This document shows positions 11,479 through 56,553 of a stretch of 64,000 nucleotides of DNA, in pieces; position 1 is the first letter of the stretch, and every line of letters starts with the position of its first letter. The notes beneath the pieces are model-generated. The model worked only from the letters and a program-made list of their open reading frames with translations, was not told where the DNA came from and did not search any database. The stretch comes from an uncultured Collinsella sp. (lineage in GTDB: Bacteria > Actinomycetota > Coriobacteriia > Coriobacteriales > Coriobacteriaceae). The stretch is from positions 7,284 through 71,283 of the forward strand of contig UQTD01000002.1 of the NCBI GenBank assembly GCA_900543845.1, read 5' to 3'. Position numbers and translations under genes: made by a program.

Positions 11479-11522
11479 GTGCAACTGCAAAGGGGCCCCA
11501 AACGGGGCCCCTTTTCGATTCT

Positions 11523-13016: not shown

Positions 13017-13022
13017 CGACCA

Positions 13023-13445
13023 CTAACTCACCGTTTCCTCGCCAAAGCGATATAGCTCTTCATTGACCTTTTGGAGGCTACAGCCACGGTCGATGCAAAA
13101 GATAATGATTGCATCGCGACGGTCCTTACAGTTGAGGACGCTCACTCCGGCAGCCGTCAGAGCGCGGTTGGTCTCCTTCATCGACAGCGCCATTGCAAAG
13201 GCAATCTGCAGCACCTTATTGCGACTCGGATGCCGCGCACCGGTAAAAATCTGATAGCCAAAGGTCTCGTTGAGGTCGGCCATACGCACCACACGCGAGC
13301 GCTCGAGCCCCTTCTCTTGCAGCAACTGCTTTAAGTAATCCGAAAGCGACGGGGCGGCAAAGTCGTGCTCTTTGATATAGCCATCGATGTTTGGCGCGTC
13401 GAGGAGTTCATTGAGTAACTCGTCCGTCAGCTTTTTATTGGGCAT
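13023..13445 (-). CDS. Putative XRE-like helix-turn-helix regulator, in an operon with the Ser/Thr kinase
   Basis: 140 aa. The segment LSDYLKQLLQEKGLERSRVVRMADLNETFGYQIFTG.RHPSRNKVLQIAFAM looks like an HTH_XRE. Its stop is 7 nt from the kinase start. Confidence 0.45.
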   Translation of the reverse strand: MPNKKLTDELLNELLDAPNIDGYIKEHDFAAPSLSDYLKQLLQEKGLERSRVVRMADLNETFGYQIFTGARHPSRNKVLQIAFAMALSMKETNRALTAAGVSVLNCKDRRDAIIIFCIDRGCSLQKVNEELYRFGEETVS

Positions 13446-13484
13446 ACGACCTCACCTCCCATACGGCGCAACGGTAGCGACATG

Positions 13485-14030
13485 TTAGGCCAGCACCCAG
13501 CTTGCAGCAGCAGACTTATCAAACACGTTGGCAAAATAGAGAGCCTTCTTGATGTCACCATCAAAGTAGATATTGCCCGCCACGGAGCCACCGGCGGCAA
13601 GGGTACCAGACTGCAGCTCATCGGAACCCTCGCTGTAATAACCCTGGTTCTGCTGCGCACCGTTGGCGTCCTCGCCCTTCCAGTCGTAGATATTGTAATC
13701 TGCGCCCTCATCGCCATTGTTGACGTACGTGACGTGAATACCCGTCATGGTCGAACCGTCATAATTTGTAAGGCCGGGCTGGACGGAATCGACGACGACG
13801 GAAAGGCCAGCAGTCGTGGTCACCGTCGTGCCAACAGCCAGGTCAGTCGTAGGCTGCTCTTCCTTCTTCGTCTCTTCCTTCTTGTCGCCATCGCCGGCAT
13901 CCTCGGTGACGGTCGCCTTATCGCTACCGCAACCGGCAAGAAGACCGGCAGTCCCCAAGGCAACAGTGGCGAATGCGCCAAGTGCAGCGCGACGGCTCAG
14001 CAGCACTTCGTTTTCGAGCTTATTCATCAT
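13485..14030 (-). CDS. DUF4352-family lipoprotein with a Tat-type signal (SRRAAL..LLAGC)
   Basis: Twin-arginine motif plus lipobox LLAGC. The Gly/Asp-rich beta domain with GSVAGNIYFDGD is typical of DUF4352. Confidence 0.55.
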   Translation of the reverse strand: MMNKLENEVLLSRRAALGAFATVALGTAGLLAGCGSDKATVTEDAGDGDKKEETKKEEQPTTDLAVGTTVTTTAGLSVVVDSVQPGLTNYDGSTMTGIHVTYVNNGDEGADYNIYDWKGEDANGAQQNQGYYSEGSDELQSGTLAAGGSVAGNIYFDGDIKKALYFANVFDKSAAASWVLA

Positions 14031-14445
14031 GCATCCTTCCTACGATCCGGCTACCGCGCCGGCACACAGCACATCGTAGAAGGCAGCGAGCTCAAATTCA
14101 TTAGCTGGGAGCTAATGGGGGTTTGTAAGCCAGATTGGTACTGGATTGAGAAGATGCCTGTTCAGATGGAGCGGTGATTGAGGCTGCAGCTTGATACCAA
14201 AGCGCCCTTTCCGCGCCTCTGGCCGACGTTAGCCGCACCCCTCTCACCTGCAAGATGCCCATGAGGGGGGCTGCCCGTCGAAGATAGCGCGCGCATGGTG
14301 TTCGACGATTCCGTCGCCCCGCTATCGAATAAAAGGTATGGTCCTAAGATCACTCAGGCAATAAAGCAATAGCGCTGCGGTATATCTCCCCGTGCTTTAA
14401 GTCGGCATCAGCCACCTCAGGCAAGCGATTCAAATCACGGCACCC

Positions 14446-15558
14446 CTATGCCAGCTCGCGAAGCCTCCCGAGCGCCAGCCTGAACCACTCCAGATCGTCC
14501 TTATCAGGCACGCTATCGTACTTCCAGTGCGTTATATAGCGCCACCGAGAGAAGACGCCGCTGCCCAGAAGCCCAACGTCGTCTATGGTGTCTATGTCCT
14601 CTCGCAGTCCTTCGGCCGTACCGGAGCGCGGATATGCCCCGGCAAAGGCCTCGCCACAGTCCATGTGCCAACCCAGGCCGAACATGTCATGGGCCAACGC
14701 GTGGAAGTCGCGGGTGGGACCGTCCAGCGAATCCTCGAAGCGCTTAACGAACCTGCACAGGTCATCACCGTAAGCCCCGCCGAACAAATAAGGCTCAATC
14801 ACGTCCTTGCCGCGCAAGGCCTCTAACCACTCGGTCGGAATGCCCTCGTATACGTACAGGATGCCGGCCAATCCACCGGCCACGCAAGCCGTGGTGTCGG
14901 TATCGTCGCCCAGGTTCACGGCGGTCAGTACGCAGTCGCGGTAGTTGTCGGTATGTTCTAGGCACCAGATGGCGGCGTGGTAAGTATCCCACACGTAACC
15001 GCCGCTGGCACCAGCTCTGTCCTCACTCTCGCAGCCGGCGTGCCCGCTGTAAAGCACCTCGCGGGCATAGGCGATCATGTCCACGCAGGCCTGGCAGCAG
15101 TCGTCGGTAGCGTGGGTGATCGCGCTGACCTCCCTTATGTCGCAGTCGGAGCATTCCATAAACACCATAGGCAGGCAACGCATGAGCGAGCCGTTGCCCT
15201 TGCTGTATTCGCTTGTGAGCCCGCAACCCGTATCGAGCGCCTGCCTGGTGGCGTTGCCGTAGTCGAAGACGTTCCCGTCGGCGGTGTATGCGCCTTCGTT
15301 TATCCAATTGCGGAACTTGACGAGGATATCGTCGCAATTGATATCGCCCAGCTCGCGGTAGCTGTCGCACAGCGCGAGCGCCATGGACGTGTCGTCGCTC
15401 CATGTGCCCGCAGGCTGGTTGTGCGTGCCGCGGCCCACCATGTCCGTGCAGGTAAAGCTGCCGCGCGGCCTGAACTCGTAGGGCACGCCGAGCGCATCGC
15501 CCACGGCCATGCCGTACACGCAGTCCCTCACCGTCCGTAACAAGCCCATGGCGCGCAC
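14446..15558 (-). CDS. ADP-ribosylglycohydrolase family protein (DraG/ARH-like)
   Basis: N-terminal VYGMAVGDALGVPYEF and WSDDTSMALALCDS are ARH metal-binding signatures. Its start (GTG 15558 or ATG 15549) directly abuts the stop (15559-15561) of the upstream GIY-YIG gene. Confidence 0.75.
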   Translation of the reverse strand: MRAMGLLRTVRDCVYGMAVGDALGVPYEFRPRGSFTCTDMVGRGTHNQPAGTWSDDTSMALALCDSYRELGDINCDDILVKFRNWINEGAYTADGNVFDYGNATRQALDTGCGLTSEYSKGNGSLMRCLPMVFMECSDCDIREVSAITHATDDCCQACVDMIAYAREVLYSGHAGCESEDRAGASGGYVWDTYHAAIWCLEHTDNYRDCVLTAVNLGDDTDTTACVAGGLAGILYVYEGIPTEWLEALRGKDVIEPYLFGGAYGDDLCRFVKRFEDSLDGPTRDFHALAHDMFGLGWHMDCGEAFAGAYPRSGTAEGLREDIDTIDDVGLLGSGVFSRWRYITHWKYDSVPDKDDLEWFRLALGRLRELA

Positions 15559-19199: not shown

Positions 19200-19347
19200 A
19201 GAGAATCCCTTCGTGAGGCACATCTGTTGCAACTTATTGTGATACAGGATTGTGGCACACATGTTTCCAGCATATTGCTGCATTTTTTAAACGTTATATA
19301 CGAATACTCTTGTTTGGTAAAGTGCAACGTGATAGGGTCTTTACCAC

Positions 19348-19500
19348 TTGATAGAGGCGCGGGCACGAAGAGCCGCGGGCGAGCCGGCAGGCTTTGACCC
19401 CGTGGGGAGGCGAAACCCGCCGAACTGGGTTTTTCGGGCACGAACAACCTGGTGGGCCTGTGGGAAACACCCACAGGACTGTCTGCAGCAATGCGGGAGC
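19348..19500 (+). ncRNA. Lysine riboswitch (L-box) in the 5' leader of the lysA-dapA operon
   Basis: The 5' motif GATAGAGGCGC and 3' motif GGGAGCGCTATC match the conserved L-box ends. Several GC helices lie between them. It sits in the 380-nt leader of a lysine biosynthesis operon. Confidence 0.55.
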
Positions 19501-19577
19501 GCTATCCGGACATTGGGTCCACGCTATGCGGATTCGATGCGCAGATGGCGCCGTCTGGATAGCGAGGTTTACGGGAC

Positions 19578-38934: not shown

Positions 38935-39798
38935 CTATTCGGAAATCGGCGCTCCATGGCCCCAGGAGCCTTCCATACCGCATACGGTCGAAGCAAACCC
39001 CGCCGCAAAGTCGAGTGCGCGCTCGACGGCCTCGGCACCATCCTCGCCACGCTTGGCGGAATCGAGATAGCACATCAGAAACGAAGTCAGGAACGAGTCA
39101 CCCGCGCCCATGGTGTCCTTCATGTCTGCCACGGGCTTGGCATGCTGCCGATAGTAACGCTCGCCGTCATAGGCAATGCAGCCCTCAGCGCCAGCCGTTG
39201 CGGACACAAAACATGGGCCCAAGCCCTTCACCCAGGCAAGACGCTCGCGAATCTCATCCTCGCTCGCAGCGTCTGCCGCGCTAAAGAACGCGAAGTCGAC
39301 GTAGGGAGCAATCTGCTCGTAGTACTCGTCGGTCGAATCGTCCGAAAAGTCAAAAGAAACCGTGACGCCCGCGGCCTTCAACTTGGGCAGCTCGCGCTCG
39401 GTAAAGCAATAGTTACCCGAGTGGACTACGTCGAACTGTTTCATATACGCCAGATCAAAACGATCGAGCACATAGCGTGCATCACCACGGATGCCGCCCT
39501 CGTTAGACCCCAGAAATACGCGATCACCATCAACCACAGTAACGCGGGCCGCACCGTTCTCGCCGATGAGCTGCTTGCATTTGGCTAGCTCAACGCCCTC
39601 ATCCTCAAGACTCGCAATCACATGCTCAGCAGCAGCGTCGTTACCAAAGATGCCCATATACGCGGAGCGCGCGGCTCCGCATTTCTTGGCATACACGGCA
39701 AAGTTCGCCGCATTGCCACCCGGATACATAGTGTGAATATGCTCGTAGCGGTCGACGACGTTGTCGCCAAACCCCAGTGCGCTCACGTTAAATGCCAT
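38935..39798 (-). CDS. PfkB-family carbohydrate kinase
   Basis: N-terminal GDNVVD..GGNAANFAV is a ribokinase-like fold, and a C-terminal DT.GAGD-type anion hole (MGAGDSF) is present. Confidence 0.7.
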   Translation of the reverse strand: MAFNVSALGFGDNVVDRYEHIHTMYPGGNAANFAVYAKKCGAARSAYMGIFGNDAAAEHVIASLEDEGVELAKCKQLIGENGAARVTVVDGDRVFLGSNEGGIRGDARYVLDRFDLAYMKQFDVVHSGNYCFTERELPKLKAAGVTVSFDFSDDSTDEYYEQIAPYVDFAFFSAADAASEDEIRERLAWVKGLGPCFVSATAGAEGCIAYDGERYYRQHAKPVADMKDTMGAGDSFLTSFLMCYLDSAKRGEDGAEAVERALDFAAGFASTVCGMEGSWGHGAPISE

Positions 39799-39860
39799 GA
39801 CGCCACCCCTCTCTCTTATGTCAACGGAACCACTGTTGTGACAGCAGTACCGCCCAGGAT

Positions 39861-40520
39861 CTACGCGAGTTCCAGCAGCTCCGGCAGCTGGTCGATAATC
39901 TTGTCCGCGGCATCCTGGCTAAATCCAAAGCGCTCCTCGCGCTTGGCAATCACCGTCAGGCCAGCACGCTTACCCGCGGTAATGCCCGGAACGGAATCTT
40001 CAACGCAGCAGCAGCGATTCGCGGGCAGCCCCAGGAGATCCAGCGCATGCAGGTAGATATCGGGCTCGGGCTTGCTCTCCTTAAACTGCTCGCCGCTCAC
40101 CACATACTCAAAGGCATCCGACAGCCCGCACGCGTTGAGCACTTCCTCGATGCTAACCATGGGAGACGAGCTGGCAAGCGCCACGCGAACGCCACGGCGC
40201 GGCAGCTCTCGAATCGTATCCACGGCGCCTGGGTTAATCAAAGCCTGATAGTCGCGCGGACGCTTATGCGCCCACTCGTCCCAACGGGCCAACGCTTCCT
40301 CGCCAGTGAAATGCCCCTTACCGGCGCGCTCAAACCAATCGACCAGCATATGCAGGAAGAACTGATGCGAGGTACCGACCTGCCCATTCAACTCCTCTTG
40401 AGTCAGATTAAGCCCAAGCTCCTTGGCAAACGCGGCAGTCTCGCCCAGGTAGTAATACTCGGTATCGACAATCACGCCGTCCATGTCAAAGATAACGGCG
40501 TCGAACGGAAATGCGGACAC
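39861..40520 (-). CDS. HAD-IA family hydrolase (beta-phosphoglucomutase-like)
   Basis: Motif I DAVIFDMDGVIVDTE. Start GTG at 40520 with a strong GGGAGGG RBS. 219 aa. Confidence 0.7.
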   Translation of the reverse strand: MSAFPFDAVIFDMDGVIVDTEYYYLGETAAFAKELGLNLTQEELNGQVGTSHQFFLHMLVDWFERAGKGHFTGEEALARWDEWAHKRPRDYQALINPGAVDTIRELPRRGVRVALASSSPMVSIEEVLNACGLSDAFEYVVSGEQFKESKPEPDIYLHALDLLGLPANRCCCVEDSVPGITAGKRAGLTVIAKREERFGFSQDAADKIIDQLPELLELA

Positions 40521-40583
40521 GGCACCCTCCCTAACAAAAGGGCGCCTGCAAGCAGGCGCCCGAACCATGCATTATCGGCGATT

Positions 40584-41426
40584 CTAACCCAGCAGCTTAT
40601 CCAGCGCCACCGCAATACCGTCTTCGTTGTTATTGGCGGTCACCATCTGGGCCACGGCCTTAACCTCGTCAACCGCGTTGCCCATGGCAACACCAGTGCC
40701 GGCCCACTCAATCATGGACTTGTCGTTCTGGCCGTCGCCAAACGATACGACCTCGCTGGCATCGATGCCGAGCTTGGGCAGGGCACCCTCGAGCGCACGG
40801 GCTTTGTCGATACCGGGCGCCGTAAACTCAAAGTACCAGTCGGCCGTAAACATACCAGAAAGCGTCTGAGTAAAGGGCGCGTACATCTCCTCGTGATGCG
40901 CTTGCAAATAGGTCGGGTCGCCCGCAGTGAGTAGCTTGTCCACGGGATAAGCATCAGCGACCTCATGCAGGCTCTCCACCTCGCGAATCTTAAGATCGCA
41001 CGCGTCGCGCTCATACTTGACGATATTCTTCTGCGAGCCGTCAGGCAGCGTGATCATGCAATGGTACGAGTCCTCGACGTGCAAATCGCGACCGAGCGAA
41101 ATCATAGGGATCACGTCAAAATTACGCAGATGATCAATCAGGCGATGCAATTCGTCGGCAGGCATAGCCTGATCGAACAGCACCTCGTCGGTCTGGGCAT
41201 CGACGACGTGAGCGCCGTTAAAGGCCACCAGCAGACCGTCATGGTTTTGAAGGTCGAGCTCCTGTGCCAAGGCGTGCAGCCCCCATGCGGGACGGCCCGA
41301 AGCCAAAATGAGCTTAATGCCCGACTCCTGCGCCGCGAGCAGCTTCTCGCGCGTACGCGGGCTAATCACTTTCTGATCGTTGGTGAGCGTACCGTCGATA
41401 TCCATCGCGATGGCTTTGATTGCCAT
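40584..41426 (-). CDS. Cof-type HAD-IIB phosphatase
   Basis: MAIKAIAMDIDGTL.. plus ..LILASGRP are Cof motifs. RBS GGGAGG precedes ATG 41426. Confidence 0.8.
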   Translation of the reverse strand: MAIKAIAMDIDGTLTNDQKVISPRTREKLLAAQESGIKLILASGRPAWGLHALAQELDLQNHDGLLVAFNGAHVVDAQTDEVLFDQAMPADELHRLIDHLRNFDVIPMISLGRDLHVEDSYHCMITLPDGSQKNIVKYERDACDLKIREVESLHEVADAYPVDKLLTAGDPTYLQAHHEEMYAPFTQTLSGMFTADWYFEFTAPGIDKARALEGALPKLGIDASEVVSFGDGQNDKSMIEWAGTGVAMGNAVDEVKAVAQMVTANNNEDGIAVALDKLLG

Positions 41427-42033
41427 ATATGCCTCCCTGTCATTGAACAACCTTGTCTGAGCCATCATACAGAACACCCACCGCGACTCTGTTTGCAACG
41501 GGCAAAAAGTCATATATTGTCTCAAACATGAACGGGACGCCATCTCGGGGCTCAGTCGTTCCAGCCCAAACGCCGAGCCACCACATGCAAAGCTGGCGAC
41601 ACCAATCGCGACCGTTCCACAAATCTCATTTCATCCCGTAGAAAAAAATTCAAAATTAGTTCTTGTCAAATCGGCAAAACGAACGTACTTTAAAGATGAC
41701 CGCTCCGGTGGTCATCGTTTGATCGAGCATATTCAGTTTCAGTTTTCAGCGTGTAAGAGAAAGAAGATCGGCAAAGTACAACCCCAAACGCAATGACAAC
41801 TTAATGAGGTAACTGCCACATGTGAGGCACCCAGGGCATTGCTGTCTCGATTTTGAGCACGATGCCTTCCGCCTTGCATGGGCCGTTCCATCCCGCCCCT
41901 GCAGCAACTGCCTCACGGGCTCATTGAAAACCGCATAGCACCCCCACGTCAGCACATCACCCACGGCAAGCACATCACTCACGACAACCAACACATCAAC
42001 AAACAGCACGAACATCAACCGATTGGAGAAGCT

Positions 42034-42924
42034 ATGACAAACCACCACGCTGAAGACGGCGATAAGAAAAGCATTCTGGATGCCCGCATTGAGCGAGCAT
42101 ATGCAAACGAATATGACGCCGCCTTTGCCGCCGCGACCATCAAGAACTACGCGTCGCTACCGCTCGCGACGATCTTGGCCGACCACCCTCAACTGCTGAA
42201 GCGCTGCACAAAGATCATGGGCGACCCCGAGATTCGCAAACTGACAGACCCCTATGCCCCAAAACGCGACAACGATTCGTACGTTCTTACCGTAGGCTGC
42301 CTAGCCCATATGCTTACGGCGCTCGACACGAAACTCAAGCTCGAATGGGAACCCGACGAGCGTCATGAACTCGAAAGCAAGCGGAACACCCTGCGCACCG
42401 CACTGTTCCTTCCGTTGGACGGCCTCAAGCGCTGCAACGTCGAGCTCAATACACAGGCGCGGCAAAAGCCCGGAACCACGGGGCAGAAAACTCCAAGACC
42501 CCATGCGGCCATCGTCGACCGCAACCGATATAACCGCATGACCGCGCACTTTTCCGCCGAGGGAGCAGCCATAAGGACGCTGATCGACCTGCTGTGCCTC
42601 CTGAGCATCAACGAACTATTTGAGGGCTATCTCGCCCTTGTTCCCGCGACGGCACCCAAGTCGGTAGCAAAGATCATCGAGACCTGCAGACGCCAGTTTG
42701 AGCGCCATCGCAATGGCAGCGAGATGAACGCCAGCATCGCGCAGTACTACACGGCCCATTACAAAAAAGACGGATGTGCCCCTGTCGAGCATCAGCTGCG
42801 GCTCGCCTATACCACGCCCGTCGCAACGCTCCATCGCTTTGGAGCCCTTGGCGCTTGCGAGCCGCACGAACAGGCAGCCTGCCCCACAACCGAGCTCGAT
42901 CTCAGGCTCGGACGAACCCTGTAG
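42034..42924 (+). CDS. Hypothetical protein (296 aa), first gene of a hypothetical/ClpP-like/T4CP-like operon
   Basis: RBS GGAGAAG precedes ATG 42034. It follows a ~300-bp AT-rich promoter region. No recognisable motifs. Confidence 0.45.
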   Translation: MTNHHAEDGDKKSILDARIERAYANEYDAAFAAATIKNYASLPLATILADHPQLLKRCTKIMGDPEIRKLTDPYAPKRDNDSYVLTVGCLAHMLTALDTKLKLEWEPDERHELESKRNTLRTALFLPLDGLKRCNVELNTQARQKPGTTGQKTPRPHAAIVDRNRYNRMTAHFSAEGAAIRTLIDLLCLLSINELFEGYLALVPATAPKSVAKIIETCRRQFERHRNGSEMNASIAQYYTAHYKKDGCAPVEHQLRLAYTTPVATLHRFGALGACEPHEQAACPTTELDLRLGRTL

Positions 42925-42987
42925 CCCGCCAGCCCCTCCGCGGGCAACAATCCTATTCCACAGCACAACCAACAGAAAGGAGTCCTC

Positions 42988-43605
42988 ATGGACACCAATC
43001 ATTCCCCCATCATCAGCCCCCTCACCATGCGTGAATCCGCCCGAGGCATCACGCTCACCAGCATTTACGATGAGATGCTCGCCCGTCGCGAGCTCTCCGT
43101 CATGGGAAACATCGAAACCTCGATGGCCCACGACCTATGCCAGCAGATCCGCCTGCTCGATGCCACCGACCCCAGCCGCCCCATCACCATATTTGTCGCC
43201 AGCGCCGGCGGAAGCGTGCGATCGGGTCTTGCGATCTATGACGCCATGCGCCTCGCATCGTGCCCCATCCGCACCGTCTGCCTGGAATTCGCCGCGTCCA
43301 TGGGCGCCGTAATCTTTATGGGCGGCGACGATCGACGTATGGCGCCCCATGCAGAGCTCATGATTCACGACCCGCTGATCCCCCAGGGGGCAGGCGGCTC
43401 GGCACTTGCGCTGCAGGAAACCAGCCGGCGTCTCATGCAGACCCGCAAGACCCTCACGCAAATCCTCTCGGACCGCAGCGGCCTCACGCCCAAGCGCATC
43501 CAGTCCCTCACTGCAAAAGACACCTACCTTTCGGCCAAGCGCGCCGTCGAGCTCGGCTTTGCCCACGAAATCCTCTCGACCACCAAGGAGGTCGCCCATG
43601 TCTAA
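42988..43605 (+). CDS. ClpP-family (S14) serine protease-like protein
   Basis: Catalytic triad contexts are conserved: EFAASMGAVIF (Ser), MIHDPL (His) and AKDTYLSAKRAVELGF (Asp). It is 205 aa, typical of the ClpP core. Confidence 0.7.
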   Translation: MDTNHSPIISPLTMRESARGITLTSIYDEMLARRELSVMGNIETSMAHDLCQQIRLLDATDPSRPITIFVASAGGSVRSGLAIYDAMRLASCPIRTVCLEFAASMGAVIFMGGDDRRMAPHAELMIHDPLIPQGAGGSALALQETSRRLMQTRKTLTQILSDRSGLTPKRIQSLTAKDTYLSAKRAVELGFAHEILSTTKEVAHV

Positions 43606-44902
43606 CCTCGCCAGCCGCCTCGCCGCATCTGAGTCCGCATCGTCCACCATCCTCGCCAAGGATCGAACGCTTTCCTGCGACACCCGCCAAACGGGACTCA
43701 ACAACAACGCACTTGTAATCGGCCCCTCGGGAGCCGGCAAGACCCGAAACGTCCTCAAGCCCAACCTGCTGCAAATGAACGCAAGCTACATCGTGCTCGA
43801 CACCAAAGGCACGCTCTGTCGCGAAGTGGGACCCGTGCTGGCAGCCCACGGTTACCGCGCGCAATGTCTCAACTTCGCCGACCTCAACACCGTCCCGGCC
43901 CTTGCGCCCGGCATCGAGCGCTGCGGCTACAACCCCCTGAGGCACATTCGCCGCAAGGCGGACGGCAGGCCCAACCAGCAGGACATCCTCTCGGTGGCAA
44001 AGGCCATCTGCCCCATCGAGGACAACAACCAGCCTTTTTGGGATCATGCGGCGGCAAACCTGCTGTCGTGTCTTATCGCCTACGTCACCGAACAGCTACC
44101 CGCCGACGAGCAGACGATCAGCTCGGTCATCAAGCTGATCGAGCACCTGCAGGACGGTGCCACGGCCCGATTGTTTGACGATCTGATCACGACCGACCCC
44201 CAAAGCTATGCCCTCTCGCTATGGCGGCGCTACGCCATTACGCAAAATGCCGAGCGCATGCACGCGAGCATCGTCGGCATCCTTGCCGAAAAGGTCATGT
44301 GTCTGGGATTCGACGGTGCGGCACAGCTCTATCGTGAGTGCCATCAGGTGGACTTCGCTTCCATGGGACACACCCCCTGCGCCCTGTTTGTAACCGTAAG
44401 CGATATTGACCGCAATCTCGATCCGCTGACCGGCCTCTTTATTACGCAGGCGTTTATGGGCCTCATTCGCGAAGCCGATAGGCAGCCCGACGGCAGCCTG
44501 CCCGTGCCCGTGCGCTTTATGCTCGATGACTTCGCAAATCTGCAGATCCCCCAGATCGACAACGTGCTCTCGATTATCCGAAGCCGCAACATCTGGGCAA
44601 CGCTGCTATTACAGTCGACCAATCAGCTCGATGCGTTCTATGGCGAGGCACGCGCACGCTCCATCATGGGCAACTGCGACACGCATCTGGTGCTGGCGTT
44701 CCAGGATCCCGAGAGCGCCCGGGTGTTTTCCGACCGCGCCGACGCGCTGCCCAGCACGCTCATGGCGACGCCGATCGATCGCTCGTGGCTCTTTGTACGC
44801 GGTCGCACTCCCGAACAGGTCGAGCGCTTTAGGCTCGAAGACCATCCGCTCTACGGGGAGCTGCCCGAGGCGCAGCGAGACCATGCGGAGGCCGAGATCT
44901 AG
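43598..44902 (+). CDS. Soluble VirD4/TraG/TraD-like (type IV coupling protein family, FtsK/HerA superfamily) ATPase without transmembrane segments
   Basis: Walker A GPSGAGKT is present. The TraG-D_C-like region FMLDDFANLQIP..LSIIRSRNIWATLLLQSTNQLDAFYGEARARSIMGNCDTHLVLAFQD matches the LDEFANLG / RSRGI / QS..QL / nCDt motifs of T4CPs. The ATG overlaps the ClpP-like stop by 8 nt and has an AAGGAGG RBS. No N-terminal TM helices. Confidence 0.65.
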   Translation: MSNLASRLAASESASSTILAKDRTLSCDTRQTGLNNNALVIGPSGAGKTRNVLKPNLLQMNASYIVLDTKGTLCREVGPVLAAHGYRAQCLNFADLNTVPALAPGIERCGYNPLRHIRRKADGRPNQQDILSVAKAICPIEDNNQPFWDHAAANLLSCLIAYVTEQLPADEQTISSVIKLIEHLQDGATARLFDDLITTDPQSYALSLWRRYAITQNAERMHASIVGILAEKVMCLGFDGAAQLYRECHQVDFASMGHTPCALFVTVSDIDRNLDPLTGLFITQAFMGLIREADRQPDGSLPVPVRFMLDDFANLQIPQIDNVLSIIRSRNIWATLLLQSTNQLDAFYGEARARSIMGNCDTHLVLAFQDPESARVFSDRADALPSTLMATPIDRSWLFVRGRTPEQVERFRLEDHPLYGELPEAQRDHAEAEI

Positions 44903-44980
44903 GCGCAGGGTTCTCGCAGCGCGCGGCGCCCCGGCGATGTTCCACAAAGGCCGTGCGCCCCGGGACCACGGCAAAGCAAA

Positions 44981-45010
44981 GGGGCCCGCATCCGATAGGA
45001 TACGGGCCCC
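44981..45010. terminator. Bidirectional terminator-like hairpin between the T4CP-like gene and pgi
   Basis: Stem ggggcccg .. cgggcccc with a 14-nt loop, between convergent genes. Confidence 0.4.
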
Positions 45011-45043
45011 TGACTATAAGGCGCGATGCGTTAACAGCAGCGA

Positions 45044-46765
45044 CTACTTACGGTGAGCGCGGTAGAACTCGATGAGCGCCTGGGTCGAAGCGTCCTGCTC
45101 GGCCTTGGCGGCGTCGTCGTGGAAGGCAGGGGTAATCTGCTTGGCAAGCTGCTTGCCCAGCTCGACGCCCCACTGGTCGTAGGAGTCAATGCCCCAGACC
45201 GTGCCCTCGACAAACGTGATGTGCTCGTACAGGGCGATGAGCTCGCCGAGTGCGAACGGGGTCAGCGTGTCGCCGAAGATCGAGGTCGTCGGACGGTTGC
45301 CCTCAAAGCAGCGGGCCGGGACGATCTGCTCGGGCGTGCCCTCGGCACGAACCTCGTCGGCAGTCTTACCAAAGGCGAGAGCCTTGGTCTGGGCCAGGAA
45401 GTTGCCCAGGAACAGCTCATGCACATCCTGACCGCTATCGGTCGCAGGGTTGGCGGTATTGGCAAAGGCGATGAAGTCGGCCGGAACCACCACGGTGCCC
45501 TGGTGCAGCAGCTGATAAAAGGCATGCTGGCCGTTGGTGCCGGGCTCGCCCCAGAAGATCTCGCCGGTATCGGAGGTCACAGCGCTGCCGTCCCAGCGGA
45601 CGTGCTTGCCGTTGGACTCCATGGTGAGCTGCTGCAGGTAAGCCGGGAAGCGGTGCAGATACTGGCAGTACGGAAGCACGGCGTGGCTCTTGGAGCCGAA
45701 GAAGTTGACGTACCAGACGTTGAACAGGCCCATCAGCGCGACGGCGTTGCTCTCGAGCGGCGTGTTGCAGAAGTACTCGTCAATGGCATGGAAGCCCTCG
45801 AGGAACTGCTGGAAGCGCTCGGGGCCGAGCACGACGATCAGCGACAGGCCCACGGCGGAGTCGACGGAGTAGCGGCCGCCGACCCAGTTCCAGAAGCCGA
45901 AGGCGTTGGCGGGGTCGATACCGAAGGCCTCAACCTTCTCGAGTGCGGTGGAAACGGCGACGAAGTGCTTTGCCACGGCCTCGGCGTTCTGCTCCTCGGA
46001 GCCATCGATGGCGCCCTGAGCCTTGAGCTGCTCGAGCATCCAGGTCTTGACTTCGCGAGCGTTGGTGAGGGTCTCGAGCGTGGTGAAGGTCTTGGAGACG
46101 ATGATCACGAGCGTGGTCTCGGGATCGAGGCCCTTGAGCTTCTCGGCCTGATCGTTGGGGTCGATGTTGGAGATGTAGCGGCAGTCGATACCGGCGTCGG
46201 CGTAGGGACGCAGGGCCTCGTAGGCCATGACCGGGCCCAGATCGGAGCCACCGATGCCGACGGACACCAGGTGCTCGATCTTCTTGCCGGTAACGCCCTT
46301 CCACTCACCGGAGCGCACGCGCTCGGCGAAGGCGTACATGCGGTCGAGGACCTCGTGCACGTCGGCGACGACATCCTGGCCGTCAACGATGAGCTGACCC
46401 TTCTCGCTTGCCGGACGGCGAAGCGCGGTATGCAGAACAGCGCGGTCCTCGGTGGTGTTGATGTGCTCGCCGGAGAACATGGCGTCGCGGCGCTCCTCGA
46501 GCTTCACCTCGCGGGCAAGATCGCACAGCAGCTTGACGGTCTCATCGGTCACCAGGTTCTTGGACAGGTCGAAGTGCAGGTCACCGGCATCAAAGCTCAG
46601 CTTGTTCACGCGCTCTGCATCGGCAGCAAACCATGCCTTAAGGTCGATACCCTCGGCCTCGAGCTTCTCCTGATGGGCCTCGAGCGCCTTCCAAGCGGCG
46701 GTCGACGTAGCGTCGATAGGTGCGGCAACAGTTGCCATAAAGTCCTCCTCAACATACGGGCGCAT
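45044..46765 (-). CDS. pgi: Glucose-6-phosphate isomerase
   Basis: 573 aa. The SIS domains and overall sequence are unmistakably PGI (..[11 protein letters not shown].. and active-site region). Confidence 0.9.
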
Positions 46766-46861
46766 ACCTCCATGCGCCCGGATAATCAGATGCCCTTATT
46801 CTAGCGCAGGTCAAGACCGTAATCAGCGAGCGTTGCCAATTCGCCCCCAAACGGCGACCGA

Positions 46862-46935
46862 CCAAAAAGGGACAGGTTTATTTTGGCAGGTCAAACGCTT
46901 TACCTACCAAAATTAACCTGTCCCTTCCTGTCAGG
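46862..46935. repeat. Two inverted copies of the CCAAAAAGGGACAGGTTT hairpin motif (copies 2 and 3)
   Basis: 46862-46892 reads ccaaaaagggacaggtttattttggcaggtc. 46907-46935 reads ccaaaattaacctgtcccttcctgtcagg, a degenerate copy in opposite orientation. Both lie in the pgi upstream region. Confidence 0.5.
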
Positions 46936-46937
46936 TG

Positions 46938-47513
46938 CTAGGCCGCCGCGCACACGCTGCCGAGCAGCTCGCGCAGAGGAGACCCAATGCCCTCAAGCAG
47001 TTCGGGAGCGATAATGGCAAAAACGGGAACCTCGCCGGCCCCCACGACGGCAGGCACTTTGCCCTCCGAGACAATACATCCATAAGGGACAAAACCGTCT
47101 TCGCCGGCATCGAGTACCGCCATGCGACGCGCGAGTTCGCGCGCAAAGCCGGCAGTATCGGCATCGCCGATCGCCAGGACAAAGTCCACGCCTTCGTCGG
47201 TCGCTAGGGCCACGGCCTCATCAACCAAATCGTCTCCCCCGTCGCCCCCGACCAAACCGCAACGAAAGAGCACGCGTTCGAGCAGGGCGCGATCGAGCGA
47301 GCCGAGTGCCGCCGAGACGAGCTCATCACGCGTATGCTTGTCACCGCCCAGCACGACCAGCGCCTTGGTGCCGCCGTAGTGAGCGACCAATCGTCCACAC
47401 CAGCGAGCCACGTCTCCATCCGCAACCAAGCGCGTCGGCATACCAAACCCATAGTTGACCATCTTTCCCACAACCCTTCCGTGCGTATAGGCGGTATCAA
47501 TCGTTAGGCTCAT
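46938..47513 (-). CDS. Hypothetical Rossmann-like protein (191 aa)
   Basis: ..GGTKALVVLGGDKHTRDELVSAALGSL.. suggests a nucleotide-binding fold. Function unknown. Confidence 0.35.
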   Translation of the reverse strand: MSLTIDTAYTHGRVVGKMVNYGFGMPTRLVADGDVARWCGRLVAHYGGTKALVVLGGDKHTRDELVSAALGSLDRALLERVLFRCGLVGGDGGDDLVDEAVALATDEGVDFVLAIGDADTAGFARELARRMAVLDAGEDGFVPYGCIVSEGKVPAVVGAGEVPVFAIIAPELLEGIGSPLRELLGSVCAAA

Positions 47514-47594
47514 GCTAAGAAGCGAGGTTTTCCGAGCTGTTTCACGCTCTTTAGAGCTGCGTTAAAACCCGATCCAACCGCACGACCATACCCA

Positions 47595-47617
47595 CCAAAA
47601 AGGGACAGGTTTTGACG
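47595..47617 (+). repeat. CCAAAAAGGGACAGGTTT motif, copy 4
   Basis: Exact 18-mer match in the divergent promoter region between the 46938 gene and the Y-family polymerase. Confidence 0.5.
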
Positions 47618-47640
47618 ATGTCCGCGCAAGCGGGTATTAT

Positions 47641-47670
47641 CGAACATGTATTCGATAAGAACATGTGTTT
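47641..47670 (+). promoter_or_regulatory. Two Cheo-type LexA boxes (CGAACATGTATTCG and AGAACATGTGTTT) upstream of the Y-family polymerase
   Basis: Both match the Gram-positive/actinobacterial SOS box (T)CGAAC-N4-GTTCG(A) with one mismatch each. They lie 16-45 nt upstream of ATG 47686. Confidence 0.6.
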
Positions 47671-47685
47671 GATGGAAGGGCACGG

Positions 47686-49191
47686 ATGGCGCACGAGCAG
47701 CACACCTACATCTGCATCGACCTTAAAACGTTCTACGCCAGCGTCGAGTGCGTCGACCGCGGGCTCAACCCGCTCACCACCAACCTGGTCGTTGCCGACG
47801 AATCGCGCGGACGAACGACCATCTGTCTCGCCATCACACAGGCCATGAAAGACCTCGGGATACACAACCGCTGCCGTTTATTCGAGATTCCCGATAGCAT
47901 CGACTACATTAAGGCCGTACCGCGCATGCAGCACTACATGGAGGTGTCGGCGCAAATCTACGGCATCTATCTGGAATACGTGAGCCCACAGGACGTGCAC
48001 GTCTACTCCATCGACGAATGCTTTATCGACGTGACGCCCTATCTGGACCTCTACCATACTGACGCTGAAGGCTTCGCCTGCATGCTGCGTGACGAGGTCC
48101 TGGGGCGCACCGGCATCACGGCAACGGTCGGCATCGGCCCCAACCTATTCCAGGCCAAGGTTGCACTCGATATCACCGCCAAGCACGTGCCCAGTCGCAT
48201 CGGCAAACTCGACGACGAGACCTTTCGCAAGGAGATCTGGCCCCATCGCCCCATCACCGACATCTGGGGCATCGGGCCCGGCGTGGCAGCGCGACTCGAA
48301 AAATACGGCGTCTACGATTTGATGGGCGTCGCGGCGCTCGACGAAAACCTGCTCTACGACGAGCTCGGCGTCAATGCCGAGTATCTTATCGACCACGCCT
48401 TTGGGCGCGAGCCGACAACTATCGCCGATATCCAAGCTTATCGCCCGCAAGCGACCTCGACCACCACAGGGCAGGTGCTCTCGAAGGGTTATGCCTACGA
48501 GCAGGCCTACACCGTGTTGCGCGAGATGGTCGACAACGCTGTGCTGGACTTAGTCGATAAGCACGTGGTGTGCGACAGCATCTCGCTCTTTGTAGGCTAC
48601 GCGAGCGAGCGCGCCGACATACGCCGCCTCGACGCCAGCGGCACAGCGCAATATGTGGACGGATGCGGACACCTACGCTCGAGCACGTCGAGCATCGAAC
48701 CCGCCGTAACTGTTGGACCCGAGCTCGCACCCCGTGCGCCCAAGCCCGTCCAACGCGATGACGAACGACGGCGCTTGGTGCGTGAGGCGCAGGCAATCGA
48801 TGGCATCTTTGTGGGAGAGCATGGCGGCAAACCGCGCGGTGGCTATGCCGCGCTCTTCGCGCACTCCAACGCTTCGCGAAAGCTGCCCGAGCGAACCAAT
48901 TCGTTTAAGAAGATCATGGGCTATTTCGATGAGCTCTGGGCGCAGACCGTCGATCCCAAACGACCGGTCAAACGCATCAACCTGGGATTTGGCAACCTCA
49001 TGCCCGAGGAATTTGCCACCATCGATCTATTTAGCGATATCGAGGCGGATGAGCGCGAGCGCGACCTGGCGCGCGCCGTCCTGGCCGTGAAAGGCAAGTA
49101 CGGCAAAAACGCCCTGGTCAAAGGATTGAGCTTTACCGCCGGCGCCACCGCGCGCGAACGCAACGACCAAGTTGGAGGACACCGTGCCTAA
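47686..49191 (+). CDS. Y-family DNA polymerase (DinB/UmuC/UvrX-like translesion polymerase)
   Basis: N-terminal ICIDLKTFYASVE.. and SIDECFIDVT.. are the Y-family catalytic motifs. RBS GGAAGGG precedes ATG 47686. Confidence 0.8.
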   Translation: MAHEQHTYICIDLKTFYASVECVDRGLNPLTTNLVVADESRGRTTICLAITQAMKDLGIHNRCRLFEIPDSIDYIKAVPRMQHYMEVSAQIYGIYLEYVSPQDVHVYSIDECFIDVTPYLDLYHTDAEGFACMLRDEVLGRTGITATVGIGPNLFQAKVALDITAKHVPSRIGKLDDETFRKEIWPHRPITDIWGIGPGVAARLEKYGVYDLMGVAALDENLLYDELGVNAEYLIDHAFGREPTTIADIQAYRPQATSTTTGQVLSKGYAYEQAYTVLREMVDNAVLDLVDKHVVCDSISLFVGYASERADIRRLDASGTAQYVDGCGHLRSSTSSIEPAVTVGPELAPRAPKPVQRDDERRRLVREAQAIDGIFVGEHGGKPRGGYAALFAHSNASRKLPERTNSFKKIMGYFDELWAQTVDPKRPVKRINLGFGNLMPEEFATIDLFSDIEADERERDLARAVLAVKGKYGKNALVKGLSFTAGATARERNDQVGGHRA

Positions 49192-49609
49192 GTCCCAACA
49201 ACAGCCGATGCGGCCACCGACACCTTTTGAACGCCTAGCGGACCCCGAGGGAAGACGTCGCTCCGCCGACCCAAAGCTCACCGCCAACGGCGCCGTCCGC
49301 GCCGGCCGCGCCGCGCAGTTTATGCCCTTTGCCGCCCTCACGGGATACTACGAGCTCGTGCGCAAGCAAGAAATTACCGTCGAACCAAAATGCGAACTCA
49401 CGGAAGAAAAAGCCCTCGAGCTTTCAAAAAAGCTCGAGGGCCTCAAACGCGGCGACTTGGTGCGTGTCACCTATTACGATACATACGGCTATCGTAGCCG
49501 CACCGGCATTCTCGACGAAGTGCTTCCCGCCTTCAAGTTCCTCAAGCTCAAGGACATCGCCATCGACTTCGACGATATCCAAGACATCGAACTGCGCGGA
49601 CGAGCCTAG
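49184..49609 (+). CDS. YolD-like protein (proposed UmuD functional analogue that accompanies Gram-positive Y-family polymerases)
   Basis: Small protein immediately downstream of, and overlapping, the polymerase gene. GTG start with a GGAGGA RBS. The C-terminal ..LVRVTYYDTYGYRSRTGILDEV.. resembles the YolD family. Confidence 0.5.
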   Translation: MPKSQQQPMRPPTPFERLADPEGRRRSADPKLTANGAVRAGRAAQFMPFAALTGYYELVRKQEITVEPKCELTEEKALELSKKLEGLKRGDLVRVTYYDTYGYRSRTGILDEVLPAFKFLKLKDIAIDFDDIQDIELRGRA

Positions 49610-56034: not shown

Positions 56035-56553
56035 CCTTTCCCCCTTGGTCTGGAAGATCACTACCCCAATAAGAATCGAGGCCGACCATGTAAAGGGAAA
56101 CGGGACACAGCGAAACGCCCGCACCTGACAGCATGCGGCAATGCCCCCGCATCGCATACGGGATGCTTGGAGCAAATATGATGTCATCTTCTGCTCACCG
56201 GAATCCAGCGGCTCCCAAAAGACCCTCGACACGAGAAGACCATGGGCAAGTAATCTGACTCGCGGGACAGCCCCGCACACAGTAACCGCCTTGCCTGGGA
56301 TTCCCACCCAGTTCCCTTTTATGCGCCAAGCGCACCCATGGTCCGGCTTCTTTTCAAACAGCATGTAATTGTATGGAAGACCAGACAACGAGCGTCCGCC
56401 GATATCACGCACACATAATTCACCGAAAATGTGGTTGAAAGTCCGCCAGGGCAACGACGAGACCTTTATCCGAAATGCAAAACGGGGCCGCAGCATCATT
56501 GCTACGACCCCGCCCGCTCAAGCAAACTCTCATTCCGAGACACTGCTGATCAG

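Follow-up and report, generated by a model that had tools for sequence, protein, structure and literature searches.

A ClpP-like peptidase and a membrane-less VirD4-like ATPase are encoded together as a conserved module that is undescribed in the searchable literature and is neither an ICE remnant nor a phage head protease. The pair (P2 and P3) was analyzed in a Collinsella gut chromosome, within a 64-kb stretch of DNA (the window), where it follows a third gene, P1, all three being read in the same direction between positions 42034 and 44902 of the plus strand. The original prediction had proposed a three-gene system; the open reading frames of 296, 205 and 434 aa were re-read in the sequence as described and the P2-P3 pair is conserved, whereas the third gene is lineage-specific, leaving two universal genes. 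Neither the searchable literature nor PADLOC v2 was found to describe the ClpP/VirD4-like pair, and the only PADLOC v2 match of proteins P1-P3 was a weak one to mad8. The features of the locus are as follows.

41430-42033, plus strand: upstream non-coding region of the operon
42034-42924, plus strand: P1 open reading frame, 296 aa, GGAG 5' of the ATG at 42034
42976-42982, plus strand: ribosome-binding site of P2, AAAGGAG, read from the sequence
42988-43605, plus strand: P2 open reading frame, 205 aa, ClpP-family serine peptidase paralogue
43585-43591, plus strand: ribosome-binding site of P3, AAGGAGG, within the 3' end of P2, read from the sequence
43598-44902, plus strand: P3 open reading frame, 434 aa, soluble VirD4/TrwB-like P-loop ATPase (T4CP cytosolic domain)
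44980-45011, minus strand: 14-bp G+C-rich hairpin (inverted repeat I10), between the convergent P3 and pgi

An alternative start of P1 at ATG 41878 (348 aa) was rejected since it has no ribosome-binding site, whereas GGAG precedes 42034. The DNA upstream of the operon, formerly regarded as an AT-rich promoter region, does show a moderate drop in G+C (~0.50 vs. ~0.60), but a search of the plus strand upstream of P1 gave no sigma-70-like site. The ATG of P3 at 43598 and the TAA stop of P2 at 43603-43605 give an 8-nt overlap which, with the AAGGAGG before the ATPase gene, was read as predicted and is consistent with translational coupling. The hairpin thought to end the island is real; given the T-tract on the minus strand, it reads as the terminator of pgi and may operate in both directions. 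Insertion of an island between HAD and pgi was not borne out: flanking repeats, an integrase or a tRNA were not found at the P1-P3 locus, the 64-kb window contains no tRNA genes, and no empty HAD|pgi site occurs among the related genomes examined, which are all occupied. As predicted, other Tn1549/CD1115-type conjugation proteins have no match anywhere in the 64-kb window.

The trio occupies one HAD|pgi site in 80 of the best 80 Collinsella species-level genomes and in all contigs recovered through pgi. Between haplotypes, identities are 41-45% for P1, 81-84% for P2 and 78-80% for P3, vs. 95-99% for the flanks, and haplotype A, that of the window, has a dS of 0.03-0.05 vs. 0.21-0.37 in the flanks (5-10 times lower). 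Sharp identity steps bound the haplotype at ~41800 and ~45000; positions 41430-41800 are variable among genomes (8 of 43 align over 41400-41800), and the conserved block starts at ~41800, where identity steps up to 0.99. Over 70 genomes carry the open reading frames intact, and the three genes are under purifying selection, with dN/dS values of 0.11-0.25 (P1, ~0.25; P2, ~0.13-0.16; P3, ~0.11-0.125). In Olsenella and Thermophilibacter, Cof-type HAD hydrolase genes are also partly syntenic with the locus, which suggests long vertical residence. The locus is a long-standing resident that exists as deeply divergent allelic haplotypes (P1 ~44% identical, flanks 96-98%), not an evident inserted island. 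That the trio is universal in the Collinsella genomes seen, at a single site, and has no defence genes beside it in the window counts against a role in genetic conflict.

P2 matches PF00574 with 153.7 bits and lies below all NCBIfam ClpP equivalog cutoffs (e.g., TIGR00493, 123 vs. 308.6). The predicted retention of the catalytic triad was confirmed: AASMG, MIHDPL and KDTY align with the Ser, His and Asp contexts of ClpP, and none of 34 distinct members of the P2 family departs from the triad. P2 also matches PHROG 94, a head maturation protease, with 127 bits; it falls under the NCBIfam head-protease cutoff (96.1 vs. 120), and ClpP models score higher. Judged by this triad, the ATPase motifs of P3 and the dN/dS of 0.11-0.25 in the trio, P2 and P3 both look like active enzymes.

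P3 matches PF02534, PF12696 and PF10412 and scores barely over the cutoff of the VirD4-like CD1115 family (NCBIfam NF045973, 252.5 bits vs. 250). The expected motifs GPSGAGKT (Walker A), LDDFANLQ, RSRNIWATLLLQSTNQL and NCDTHL are all present, and Walker A and the other ATPase motifs are invariant in 70 sequences. Walker A begins at residue 42, vs. residues 139-153 where canonical relatives have the motif (an exception is L132, a short relative, at residue 37), leaving no room for a membrane anchor, also as predicted. According to the AF2 model (pLDDT 92.4), P3 is predicted to have the fold of a T4CP NBD plus all-alpha domain; Foldseek ranks Cagbeta (8dol) and TrwBdeltaN70 (1e9r/1gl6) highest, with TM-scores of 0.6-0.73, and HerA ATPases of the Sir2-HerA and DUF4297-HerA defence complexes appear among ranks 41-50. 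Walker B is LDDF in all ClpP-linked ATPases examined vs. DEF in all canonical T4CPs examined. At the sequence level, this Glu-to-Asp replacement argues for a slow or switch-like ATPase and not a ClpX-like motor, and hydrolysis may be too slow for processive unfolding; of the ClpXP-like unfoldase-protease suggested earlier, the conserved pairing with ClpP stands and the motor is less likely. A ClpX-like (IGF/LGF-type) docking loop was not identified in P3; a conserved L-G-F at 236-238 sits at a helix junction and is missing in the Firmicute clade. As conjugation already offers examples of coupling proteins that have no TMD, e.g., TraJ of pIP501 ('T4CP Lacking TMD', PMC7434980), the solubility of P3 alone is not the novelty.

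A ClpP-like gene lies on the same strand within ≤5 kb of all 32 distinct full-length soluble-type VirD4-like genes, vs. none of 19 long canonical T4CPs, so that the neighbourhood is very strongly conserved; 24 of the 32 pairs are spaced by ≤61 nt or overlap, and 28 by ≤1.5 kb. The pair is present in two phyla, in Coriobacteriia and Lachnospiraceae (including the isolate genome of Butyrivibrio sp. XPD2006), with a gene order that varies by lineage, common start/stop overlaps and P2/P3 identities that drop in step from 99/98% down to 33/33%. Proteins of 637 aa resembling P2-P3 fusions were rejected as frameshift reads, and no natural fusion was found. Embedding in conjugative elements, raised in the original prediction as an alternative, was not observed: no relaxase, VirB4 or PrgI was found in any soluble-subfamily neighbourhood examined, nor MobC, an integrase or an oriT-like repeat near any soluble-clade locus examined, whereas canonical long CD1115-type coupling proteins have relaxase/VirB4/PrgI-type genes alongside. 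The other alternative, a prohead protease, is contradicted by the lack of capsid, portal or terminase genes beside the pair and by IMG/VR, in which the Collinsella-type ATPase has no relative and the Firmicutes type only two, neither with ClpP. A cassette of identical make-up (HTH-VirD4l-ClpP-hyp89) occurs in three different contexts, remnants and tandem copies are found in L014 and L115, and some copies are frameshifted or truncated. Many defence systems are carried by phages and plasmids; collections of such elements contain essentially no copy of the pair, which counts against a conflict role as well.

P1, predicted to be without recognizable motifs, indeed has no match in Pfam, NCBIfam, PHROGs, PADLOC or PDB sequences, and only 27 representative clusters among 1.84 billion are related to it at E<=1e-3. 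Its AF2 model is all-helical and too poor for fold comparison (pLDDT 47.6). P1 homologues are located immediately 5' of VirD4-like genes in four loci (L012, L107, L122 and L124), and in L012 and L124 one ClpP is common to two P1-like/VirD4-like pairs, which fits pairing of P1 with the ATPase. The third component differs by lineage: Collinsella, Enorma and one further lineage (L012) have a P1-like protein, Firmicutes have an Xre-type HTH, whose small gene lies directly 5' in the cassettes as it does in L157, and other orphans are found elsewhere. We infer that P1 is a fast-evolving specificity or regulatory subunit.

Defence genes are found in the neighbourhood of the pair at several loci. PsyrT (720 bits) and DarT are neighbours in L107, McrB/McrC and Fic in L110, an N6_N4 methyltransferase with RE_MamI (a restriction-modification pair) and KilA-N in L177, and SLFN/AlbA_2 in L108. 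In L009 a TOTE TPR-S1CSD protein that matches PDC-M16B is encoded next to P3, and in L108 the gene for its homologue and the P3 stop overlap by 4 nt. Near the pair in L110 and L177 are PIF1-like helicases that weakly match PDC-M16A, and the L128 pair has a D5-type primase and a giant methylase-helicase nearby, of the kind typical for mobile elements. The defence or addiction role proposed originally is backed circumstantially by these neighbours and by the population genetics of the locus, but the trio has no neighbouring defence genes in the Collinsella window.

Among known systems, canonical T4CPs (VirD4/TrwB/Cagbeta; Tn1549/CD1115) share with P3 its three Pfam families (PF02534, PF12696, PF10412), the NBD/all-alpha fold and the Walker A, RSR and NCD motifs; plasmid and ICE T4CPs are 27-33% identical to the Collinsella type and ~40% to the Firmicute soluble type. 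They differ by a ~125-aa N-terminal membrane segment, a G.EHG.A.WG motif and a ~30-aa C-proximal insert, all missing from P3, by a DE instead of DD Walker B, and by their neighbours, which for the P3 type at the loci examined are always ClpP and never PcfB, PrgI, VirB4 or a relaxase. A ring ATPase with ClpP represents the gated compartmental protease logic of Clp proteases, and P2 resembles the peptidase of ClpXP, ClpAP and ClpCP in its full-length ClpP fold, triad and N-terminal axial region, its gene being in operon with that of a ring ATPase. However, Clp ATPases are AAA+ and P3 is an FtsK/HerA/T4CP-type P-loop ATPase, with no IGF/LGF-type docking loop identified, and P2 is under all NCBIfam ClpP equivalog cutoffs. 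In Sir2-HerA and DUF4297-HerA, likewise, the two genes of an operon encode a hexameric FtsK/HerA-superfamily ATPase and an effector enzyme, but the effector is Sir2 or a nuclease and not a ClpP-fold protease, P3 belongs to the T4CP branch (TM-scores to HerA only 0.42-0.53), and P1-P3 gave no PADLOC match to these systems. IetAS, said to have been described by Gao et al. in 2020 as a defence pair of an ATPase and a subtilisin-like serine protease, is similar in its two-gene design and defence context; its families are unrelated (subtilase vs. ClpP fold, and a different ATPase), and P1-P3 have no PADLOC match to IetA or IetS. Cagbeta in complex with its regulator CagZ (8dol) is the best structural match of P3 and offers, by analogy, a case of a VirD4-type ATPase regulated by a small partner, the role proposed for P1; Cagbeta is membrane-anchored and a T4SS member, unlike P3, and P1 has no sequence similarity to any PDB chain. 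Lastly, TOTE and the PADLOC candidate PDC-M16 systems combine a TPR-S1/CSD protein with a helicase; a TPR-S1CSD-TOTE-2 protein matching PDC-M16B is encoded directly 3' of P3 in Olsenella and Thermophilibacter, but TOTE/PDC-M16 components are missing from the Collinsella window and most loci. TOTE is defined in a passage of PMC12458937 that cites Aravind et al. 2022.

The explanation we prefer, at about an even chance, is that P2 and P3, with P1, constitute an ATPase-controlled ClpP-like protease acting in genetic conflict. A lineage-specific housekeeping protease of Coriobacteriia and Lachnospiraceae, with an endogenous substrate (in stress, DNA-protein crosslink removal or quality control) and P1 as adaptor, would suit the occupancy of HAD|pgi in the best 80 of 80 Collinsella species-level genomes and all pgi contigs, the purifying selection on all three genes, the partial Cof-type HAD synteny in Olsenella and Thermophilibacter and the lack of defence neighbours in the window. 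We consider it unlikely, as 44%-identity haplotypes between 98%-identical flanks and a dS 5-10 times under that of the flanks are not normal for housekeeping genes, and as the cassette is found in unrelated contexts, duplicates and remnants, its third component is swapped for non-homologous proteins in other lineages and defence genes recurrently adjoin the pair elsewhere. Equally unlikely is a selfish addiction or toxin-antitoxin-like cassette, kept because its loss harms, in which P1 or the Xre-type HTH would be either a target destroyed by the protease/ATPase or the restraint on it. At ~3 kb and with two large enzymes it would be larger than typical toxin-antitoxin modules, it is essentially missing from the plasmids and phages where addiction modules thrive, and it has been stable for long at one Collinsella locus, even though an Xre-type HTH 5' in Firmicute cassettes and L157 recalls many toxin-antitoxin operons, the fast-evolving third component co-varies with the ATPase, the cassette shifts between contexts and DarT and PsyrT are toxin-antitoxin-type neighbours. 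This possibility overlaps the abortive-infection form of the preferred explanation and does not exclude it.

Still less probable is that P3 acts, like TraJ of pIP501, as a membrane-less coupling protein for a T4SS or mobilizable element elsewhere, with P2 processing transfer substrates. Working TMD-less coupling proteins exist (PMC7434980), IMEs may encode their own coupling protein (PMC12084326), P3 has the T4CP fold and is barely over the CD1115-family cutoff, and the L128 pair is near a D5-type primase and methylase-helicase; yet relaxase, MobC, VirB4, PrgI, integrase and oriT-like repeats are lacking near soluble-clade loci, ClpP linkage is seen in 0 of 19 canonical T4CPs, Asp stands in place of the catalytic Glu in Walker B throughout the clade and the clade-specific sequence signatures are unlike those of canonical T4CPs. 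A decaying ICE remnant or phage head-protease module, now functionless, is highly improbable and already contradicted: mobile elements commonly carry both domains, P2 reaches 127 bits with PHROG 94 and frameshifted or truncated copies occur occasionally, but the reading frames are intact in >70 genomes with dN/dS of 0.11-0.25, the pairing is kept across phyla, capsid, portal, terminase, relaxase and VirB4 genes were not found alongside, IMG/VR contains no relative of the Collinsella type, and P2 favours ClpP models over the head-protease model (96.1 vs. a cutoff of 120).

The analysis shows directly how the genes are paired, the folds, the catalytic residues, the purifying selection, the haplotype structure and the neighbourhoods. 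For the ATPase-controlled protease in genetic conflict, we infer that P2 and P3 form a physical complex and that P1 binds P3, and likewise what kind of ligand is involved and that the system serves in defence. P3 would go back to the cytosolic domain of conjugative coupling proteins of the Firmicute Tn1549/CD1115 type and, as a soluble hexameric ATPase, would take the place of the AAA+ unfoldase on a ClpP-fold peptidase ring of P2. It would recognize a macromolecular ligand, probably a protein or protein-nucleic-acid complex of an invading element, its nucleotide state deciding whether the ligand is fed to P2 or P2 is gated, while P1 would be the lineage-specific partner that sets the specificity of the ATPase or restrains it. 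The outcome may be an anti-phage or anti-conjugation defence, or an abortive or addiction-like response.

The original prediction of a three-gene unit made up of an orphan protein (P1), a ClpP-like protease (P2) and a soluble VirD4-like ATPase (P3) was confirmed, with small corrections needed for its promoter, its terminator and its supposed insertion. The trio is flanked by HAD hydrolase genes on one side and by pgi on the other, and comprises, with the adjoining hairpin, the following features:

42034-42924 (+): P1, 296 aa, with GGAG upstream of its ATG
42988-43605 (+): P2, 205 aa, preceded by AAAGGAG
43598-44902 (+): P3, 434 aa, ATG preceded by AAGGAGG, start overlapping the P2 stop by 8 nt
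44980-45011: hairpin, in the orientation of a pgi terminator

The hairpin taken for the end of the island exists, but its orientation is that of a terminator for pgi. The idea that the island had been inserted was not borne out, as no tRNA, integrase or long flanking direct repeat was found at the locus; the reported lack of other conjugation genes holds over the whole 64-kb window, where none was matched. An alternative ATG for P1 at 41878 is without an RBS.

Several features of the surroundings were also recorded. At 41949-41993, immediately 5' of the ATG of P1, there are imperfect direct repeats with a high content of CACATCAC, either a possible regulatory element or just low-complexity sequence that the alternative 348-aa ORF call runs across. 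Of 43 genomes with the window's form of the trio (haplotype A), no more than 8 can be aligned over the intergenic stretch 41430-41800, just upstream of the conserved block; this stretch is a hypervariable or indel-prone segment beside the presumed promoter. The HAD_2 hydrolase gene (39861-40520, -) is dimorphic among Collinsella genomes, with amino acid identities of either 67-69% or 97-100%, and in some genomes (such as those of loci L017 and L104) the PfkB region past this gene is replaced by a GntR/DcuC/amidohydrolase block. An ORF of the Fe-ADH family (46938-47513, -) is roughly half as long as usual (191 aa), yet is 92-98% identical in other Collinsella genomes; it could represent either gene truncation or a stably kept fragment. 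Two riboswitches were detected with Rfam at the gathering threshold, for lysine (19344-19512, +, 79.3 bits) and for cobalamin (56228-56354, -, 47.5 bits).

P2 matches PF00574 with 153.7 bits. The catalytic-triad contexts that it had been said to retain do align with those of ClpP (AASMG for Ser, MIHDPL for His and KDTY for Asp), and all 34 distinct ClpP-like sequences compared keep the Ser-His-Asp triad unchanged. Its scores fall below all NCBIfam ClpP equivalog cutoffs (TIGR00493, 123 vs 308.6; PRK00277, 151 vs 249) as well as those of the head-maturation models (NF045542, 96.1 vs 120; NF045540, 102.8 vs 475), which makes it a divergent paralogue; judged by these profiles, P2 belongs to the ClpP family and is not an orthologue of housekeeping ClpP. 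Its identification as a phage prohead protease was considered and rejected, given these curated cutoffs, the lack of structural genes among the neighbours seen and the near-absence of the partner ATPase from IMG/VR. No clpX or clpC was seen in the neighbourhoods inspected; for the window, the scan used the ClpP-like and VirD4-like HMMs only.

P3 matches PF02534 (108.1 bits, cutoff 20.1) and PF12696 (69.9 bits), its domain families being T4SS-DNA_transf, TraG-D_C and TrwB_AAD_bind, and it passes marginally (252.5 vs a cutoff of 250) the NF045973 model for the "VirD4-like conjugal transfer protein, CD1115 family". The AF2 model (pLDDT 92.4) has a nucleotide-binding domain and an all-alpha domain, and Foldseek ranked Cagbeta and TrwBdeltaN70 best (E ~1e-15, TM 0.6-0.73), followed by DotL, VirB4 and HerA. 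The predicted absence of an N-terminal membrane anchor was substantiated: Walker A begins at residue 42 versus 139-153 in the canonical homologues having the motif, and about 125 aligned N-terminal residues containing the membrane segment are missing in comparison with the ~600-aa CD1115-family proteins of Firmicute plasmids (27-33% identity). The ClpP gene lies immediately upstream of P3. Since conjugation systems with coupling proteins that lack a membrane domain have been described (PMC7434980), the novelty does not lie in solubility by itself.

A second difference resides in Walker B, which reads LDDF in 17 of 17 aligned ClpP-linked sequences and DEF in 10 of 10 canonical or long relatives; D310 and D311 of P3 are invariant across 70 sequences. 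From this alignment, the DD form is most simply read as a shared derived change uniting the soluble clades of Coriobacteriia and Firmicutes, both of which stand apart from canonical coupling proteins in a distance tree. P3 agrees with coupling proteins in sequence and in fold and lacks three of their defining features: the membrane anchor, the Walker B DE and the T4SS or relaxase context. A candidate LGF docking loop in P3 was discarded: Coriobacteriia do conserve L236-G-F238, but its place is the junction between two helices of the all-alpha domain, and the Firmicute clade does not have it.

Conservation of the neighbourhood was examined at loci gathered from protein look-ups and from one metagenome scan, which were the source of diversity, using local HMMs for the ClpP-like and VirD4-like families run over all loci. 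All 32 distinct full-length ATPases of the soluble type have a co-directional ClpP-like gene within 5 kb (within 1.5 kb in 28 of them, and within 61 nt or overlapping in 24), versus none of 19 distinct long (≥550 aa) coupling proteins. The identities of P2 and P3 to their counterparts drop in parallel across loci, from 99/98% to 33/33%, and the order and number of the genes vary:

Arrangement of the pair at other loci (VirD4-like and ClpP-like genes abbreviated VirD4l and ClpP; hyp and HTH, hypothetical and HTH proteins with their length in aa)
L009 (Olsenella): hyp256, ClpP, VirD4l
L108 (Thermophilibacter): hyp277, ClpP, VirD4l
L107 (Enorma): P1-like, VirD4l, ClpP
L110: hyp108, VirD4l, ClpP, hyp237
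L012 and L124: two P1-like/VirD4l cassettes with one shared ClpP
L014: ClpP, a deleted VirD4l remnant and a full VirD4l
L127 and L128: hyp, ClpP, VirD4l, on an element with a D5-type primase
L157: ClpP, HTH, VirD4l
Butyrivibrio sp. XPD2006 (isolate genome): hyp230, ClpP, VirD4l

A search seeded with the most distant member returned more than 1600 short (~405-460 aa) homologues, several of them attributed to Lachnospiraceae, and one cassette (HTH108, VirD4l, ClpP, hyp89) occurs in three different genomic contexts. In L014, a 102-aa ORF (5960-6268) consists of the two termini of a VirD4-like protein fused to each other, a remnant left by internal deletion; it lies next to the ClpP-like gene, with the full-length copy 3.7 kb downstream. 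Two apparent natural fusions of ClpP and VirD4-like proteins (P0001 and P0002, 637 aa) were dismissed as frameshifted ClpP read into the +1 ORF.

The genetic context of canonical CD1115 proteins includes genes for PcfB, PrgI, VirB4-like proteins and relaxases. Relaxase, MobC, VirB4 and PrgI are absent from every soluble-clade neighbourhood examined. PLSDB plasmids yielded long canonical coupling proteins only, with at most 40% identity. For phages, a tblastn search of INPHARED and two scans of IMG/VR turned up distant or ClpP-less matches only; IMG/VR held no relative of the Collinsella-type ATPase and two of the Firmicute type, both without ClpP. A viral-labelled IMG/VR contig (L184, 7983-9275) encodes a VirD4-like protein of the short kind (430 aa) that shares 47% identity with the soluble type of Firmicutes, with no ClpP-like gene detectable near it, a possible exception to the pairing. 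The P2-P3 pair is essentially absent from the phage, IMG/VR and plasmid collections, and is a conserved module independent of conjugation.

The third component is far less constant. Described originally as a protein without recognisable motifs, P1 has no match in Pfam, NCBIfam, PHROGs, PADLOC and PDB sequences, and searches with a profile likewise returned nothing from PDB or Pfam. Its family is tiny (27 representative clusters of 1.84 billion at E≤1e-3), and with a local iterative profile its relatives were located just ahead of the ATPase gene in both cassettes of L012 and in L107, L122, L124 and L131. The AF2 model of P1, built with 19 sequences, had a pLDDT of 47.6, too low for a fold search. 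Kinship with PcfB/DUF3801, the protein encoded upstream of canonical CD1115 coupling proteins, was rejected at an hhalign probability of 0.04. A separate family of 256-277 aa takes the third-gene role in Olsenella and Thermophilibacter, another is found in L014 and L110, and an Xre-type HTH protein in the Firmicute cassettes and L157; the universal core therefore consists of two genes accompanied by a fast-changing accessory. In L012 the P1-like and VirD4-like genes are co-duplicated and the ClpP gene is single, which suggests that P1 works together with the ATPase.

The window is from Collinsella. In the GTDB species set, which yielded at least 578 confirmed relatives, the best 80 loci all belong to Collinsella or Coriobacteriaceae, with P3 at least 98.6% identical; being nearly the same, these 80 served the population genetics and contributed little to the survey of diversity. 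Identical trios occur in the same gene context in human gut metagenome contigs; the look-up of the site by the exact pgi product returned occupied sites only. Within the haplotype the trio proteins are as conserved as their housekeeping flanks (median identities of 97.6% for P1, 99.0% for P2, 98.8% for P3 and 98.9% for PGI), and dN/dS is 0.25 for P1, 0.13-0.16 for P2 and 0.11-0.125 for P3. Intact ORFs, housekeeping-level conservation and low dN/dS indicate that P1, P2 and P3 are functional genes and not remnants.

Between flanks that are 95-99% identical, alternative trios were found in which P1, P2 and P3 are 41-45%, 81-84% and 78-80% identical to those of the window, together with an intermediate form (75/91/93%). 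The alternative haplotype group is the older one and shows more diversity, P1 being its most variable gene. In Collinsella species-level genomes sharing haplotype A, dS is 0.03-0.05 in the trio (41800-44950) versus 0.21-0.37 in the flanks 39600-41400 and 45000-49200 (HAD3, pgi and IMS, the polymerase gene), and nucleotide identity rises from ~0.90-0.96 to 0.98-0.99 at ~41800 and falls again at ~45000. The low dS and the sharp identity steps therefore argue that one allele, that of the window, has been spread recently across diverged backgrounds, seemingly by homologous recombination. A metagenome contig (L115, 3328-9260) carries the divergent (B-type) P1, ClpP and a truncated VirD4-like gene (314 aa) with a complete A-type trio immediately after them, a tandem of both haplotypes that may be an intermediate of allele replacement. 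The overall pattern is typical of frequency-dependent or diversifying selection and not of housekeeping genes.

Defence or candidate defence genes occur within 10 kb of the pair in L009, L107, L108, L110, L177 and possibly L180; none was seen in the window or in the L014 and L179 neighbourhoods.

Defence-related neighbours of the pair
L107: PsyrT (720 bits) and DarT, beside the pair
L110: McrB/McrC, Fic and a PIF1-like helicase (helicase region 363-2045)
L177: N6_N4 methyltransferase with RE_MamI, PIF1-like helicase (helicase region 4652-5899) and KilA-N
L108: SLFN/AlbA_2 gene, beside the pair
L009: TPR-S1CSD "TOTE-2" protein matching the PADLOC candidate PDC-M16B (11336-15236)

The L108 homologue of the TOTE-2 protein (8538-9752) overlaps the ATPase stop by 4 nt, and both TPR-S1CSD proteins and PIF1-like helicases (weak PDC-M16A matches) recur beside the pair in different genera, which hints at a functional link with the TOTE/PDC-M16 systems; TOTE systems are defined in PMC12458937. 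The pair itself matches no PADLOC v2 system: in PADLOC-DB v2.0.0, P1 and P2 have no match and P3 has a weak one to mad8 only (29.3 bits, E 1.4e-7). The view that no system of this composition had been described agrees with PADLOC v2 and with the full-text literature searched; a prior mention in the TOTE-defining review of Aravind et al. 2022 is conceivable. The P2-P3 composition appears undescribed; in kind, the pair would fall among the compartmental proteases served by a ring ATPase or among the conflict modules that join an ATPase to an effector.

In ClpP-fold barrels, substrate entry requires a ring ATPase, and to our knowledge all characterised ClpP partners are AAA+ unfoldases. Coupling proteins are hexamers that recognise proteins and DNA-protein substrates. 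P3 may therefore gate or feed P2. The Glu-to-Asp change and the lost membrane anchor suggest a repurposed ATPase, possibly slow or switch-like, and P1, or its non-homologous counterparts elsewhere, could tune specificity or restrain the ATPase; the complex of Cagbeta, the best structural match to P3, with CagZ provides a precedent for a partner protein acting on such an ATPase. The closest analogies to the pair are ClpXP and the HerA-effector defence complexes, and presumably also IetAS, an ATPase-protease pair.

A conflict or defence role for this presumed ATPase-gated protease has, in our estimation, an even chance of being correct. A lineage-specific housekeeping protease is rather improbable, the haplotype pattern being atypical of housekeeping genes, and we assign the same low standing to an addiction-type cassette. 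Service as an accessory to a T4SS encoded elsewhere is somewhat less probable again, considering that the soluble-type loci come without the relaxase and T4SS genes that were sought. An inert remnant or a phage module is very hard to reconcile with intact ORFs under purifying selection and with near-absence from phage collections. Within the defence reading, a bolder version is offered tentatively, as possible and on balance doubtful: the pair would be the first ClpP-family protease working with a non-AAA+ ring ATPase, a conjugation-derived coupling protein that has lost its anchor and catalytic Glu, and would form a widespread, unnamed immune system capturing and destroying relaxase-DNA complexes or phage proteins through the ancestral recognition surface, with specificity set by fast-evolving P1-type subunits.

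At present, annotation pipelines label the ATPase and protease genes "conjugal transfer protein" and "Clp protease subunit", which inflates ICE/IME calls in these genomes. For Clp biology, an obligate linkage of a ClpP-fold protease with an ATPase of the FtsK/HerA/coupling-protein type would widen the known gating modes of compartmental proteases, and the pair would illustrate clearly how part of a conjugation apparatus can become a module that resides in the chromosome and probably serves defence. It may also represent an anti-conjugation mechanism in abundant human gut bacteria such as Collinsella and Lachnospiraceae. With its deep haplotypes and a near-identical allele on diverged backgrounds, the Collinsella locus is a tractable natural example of selection on such a module.
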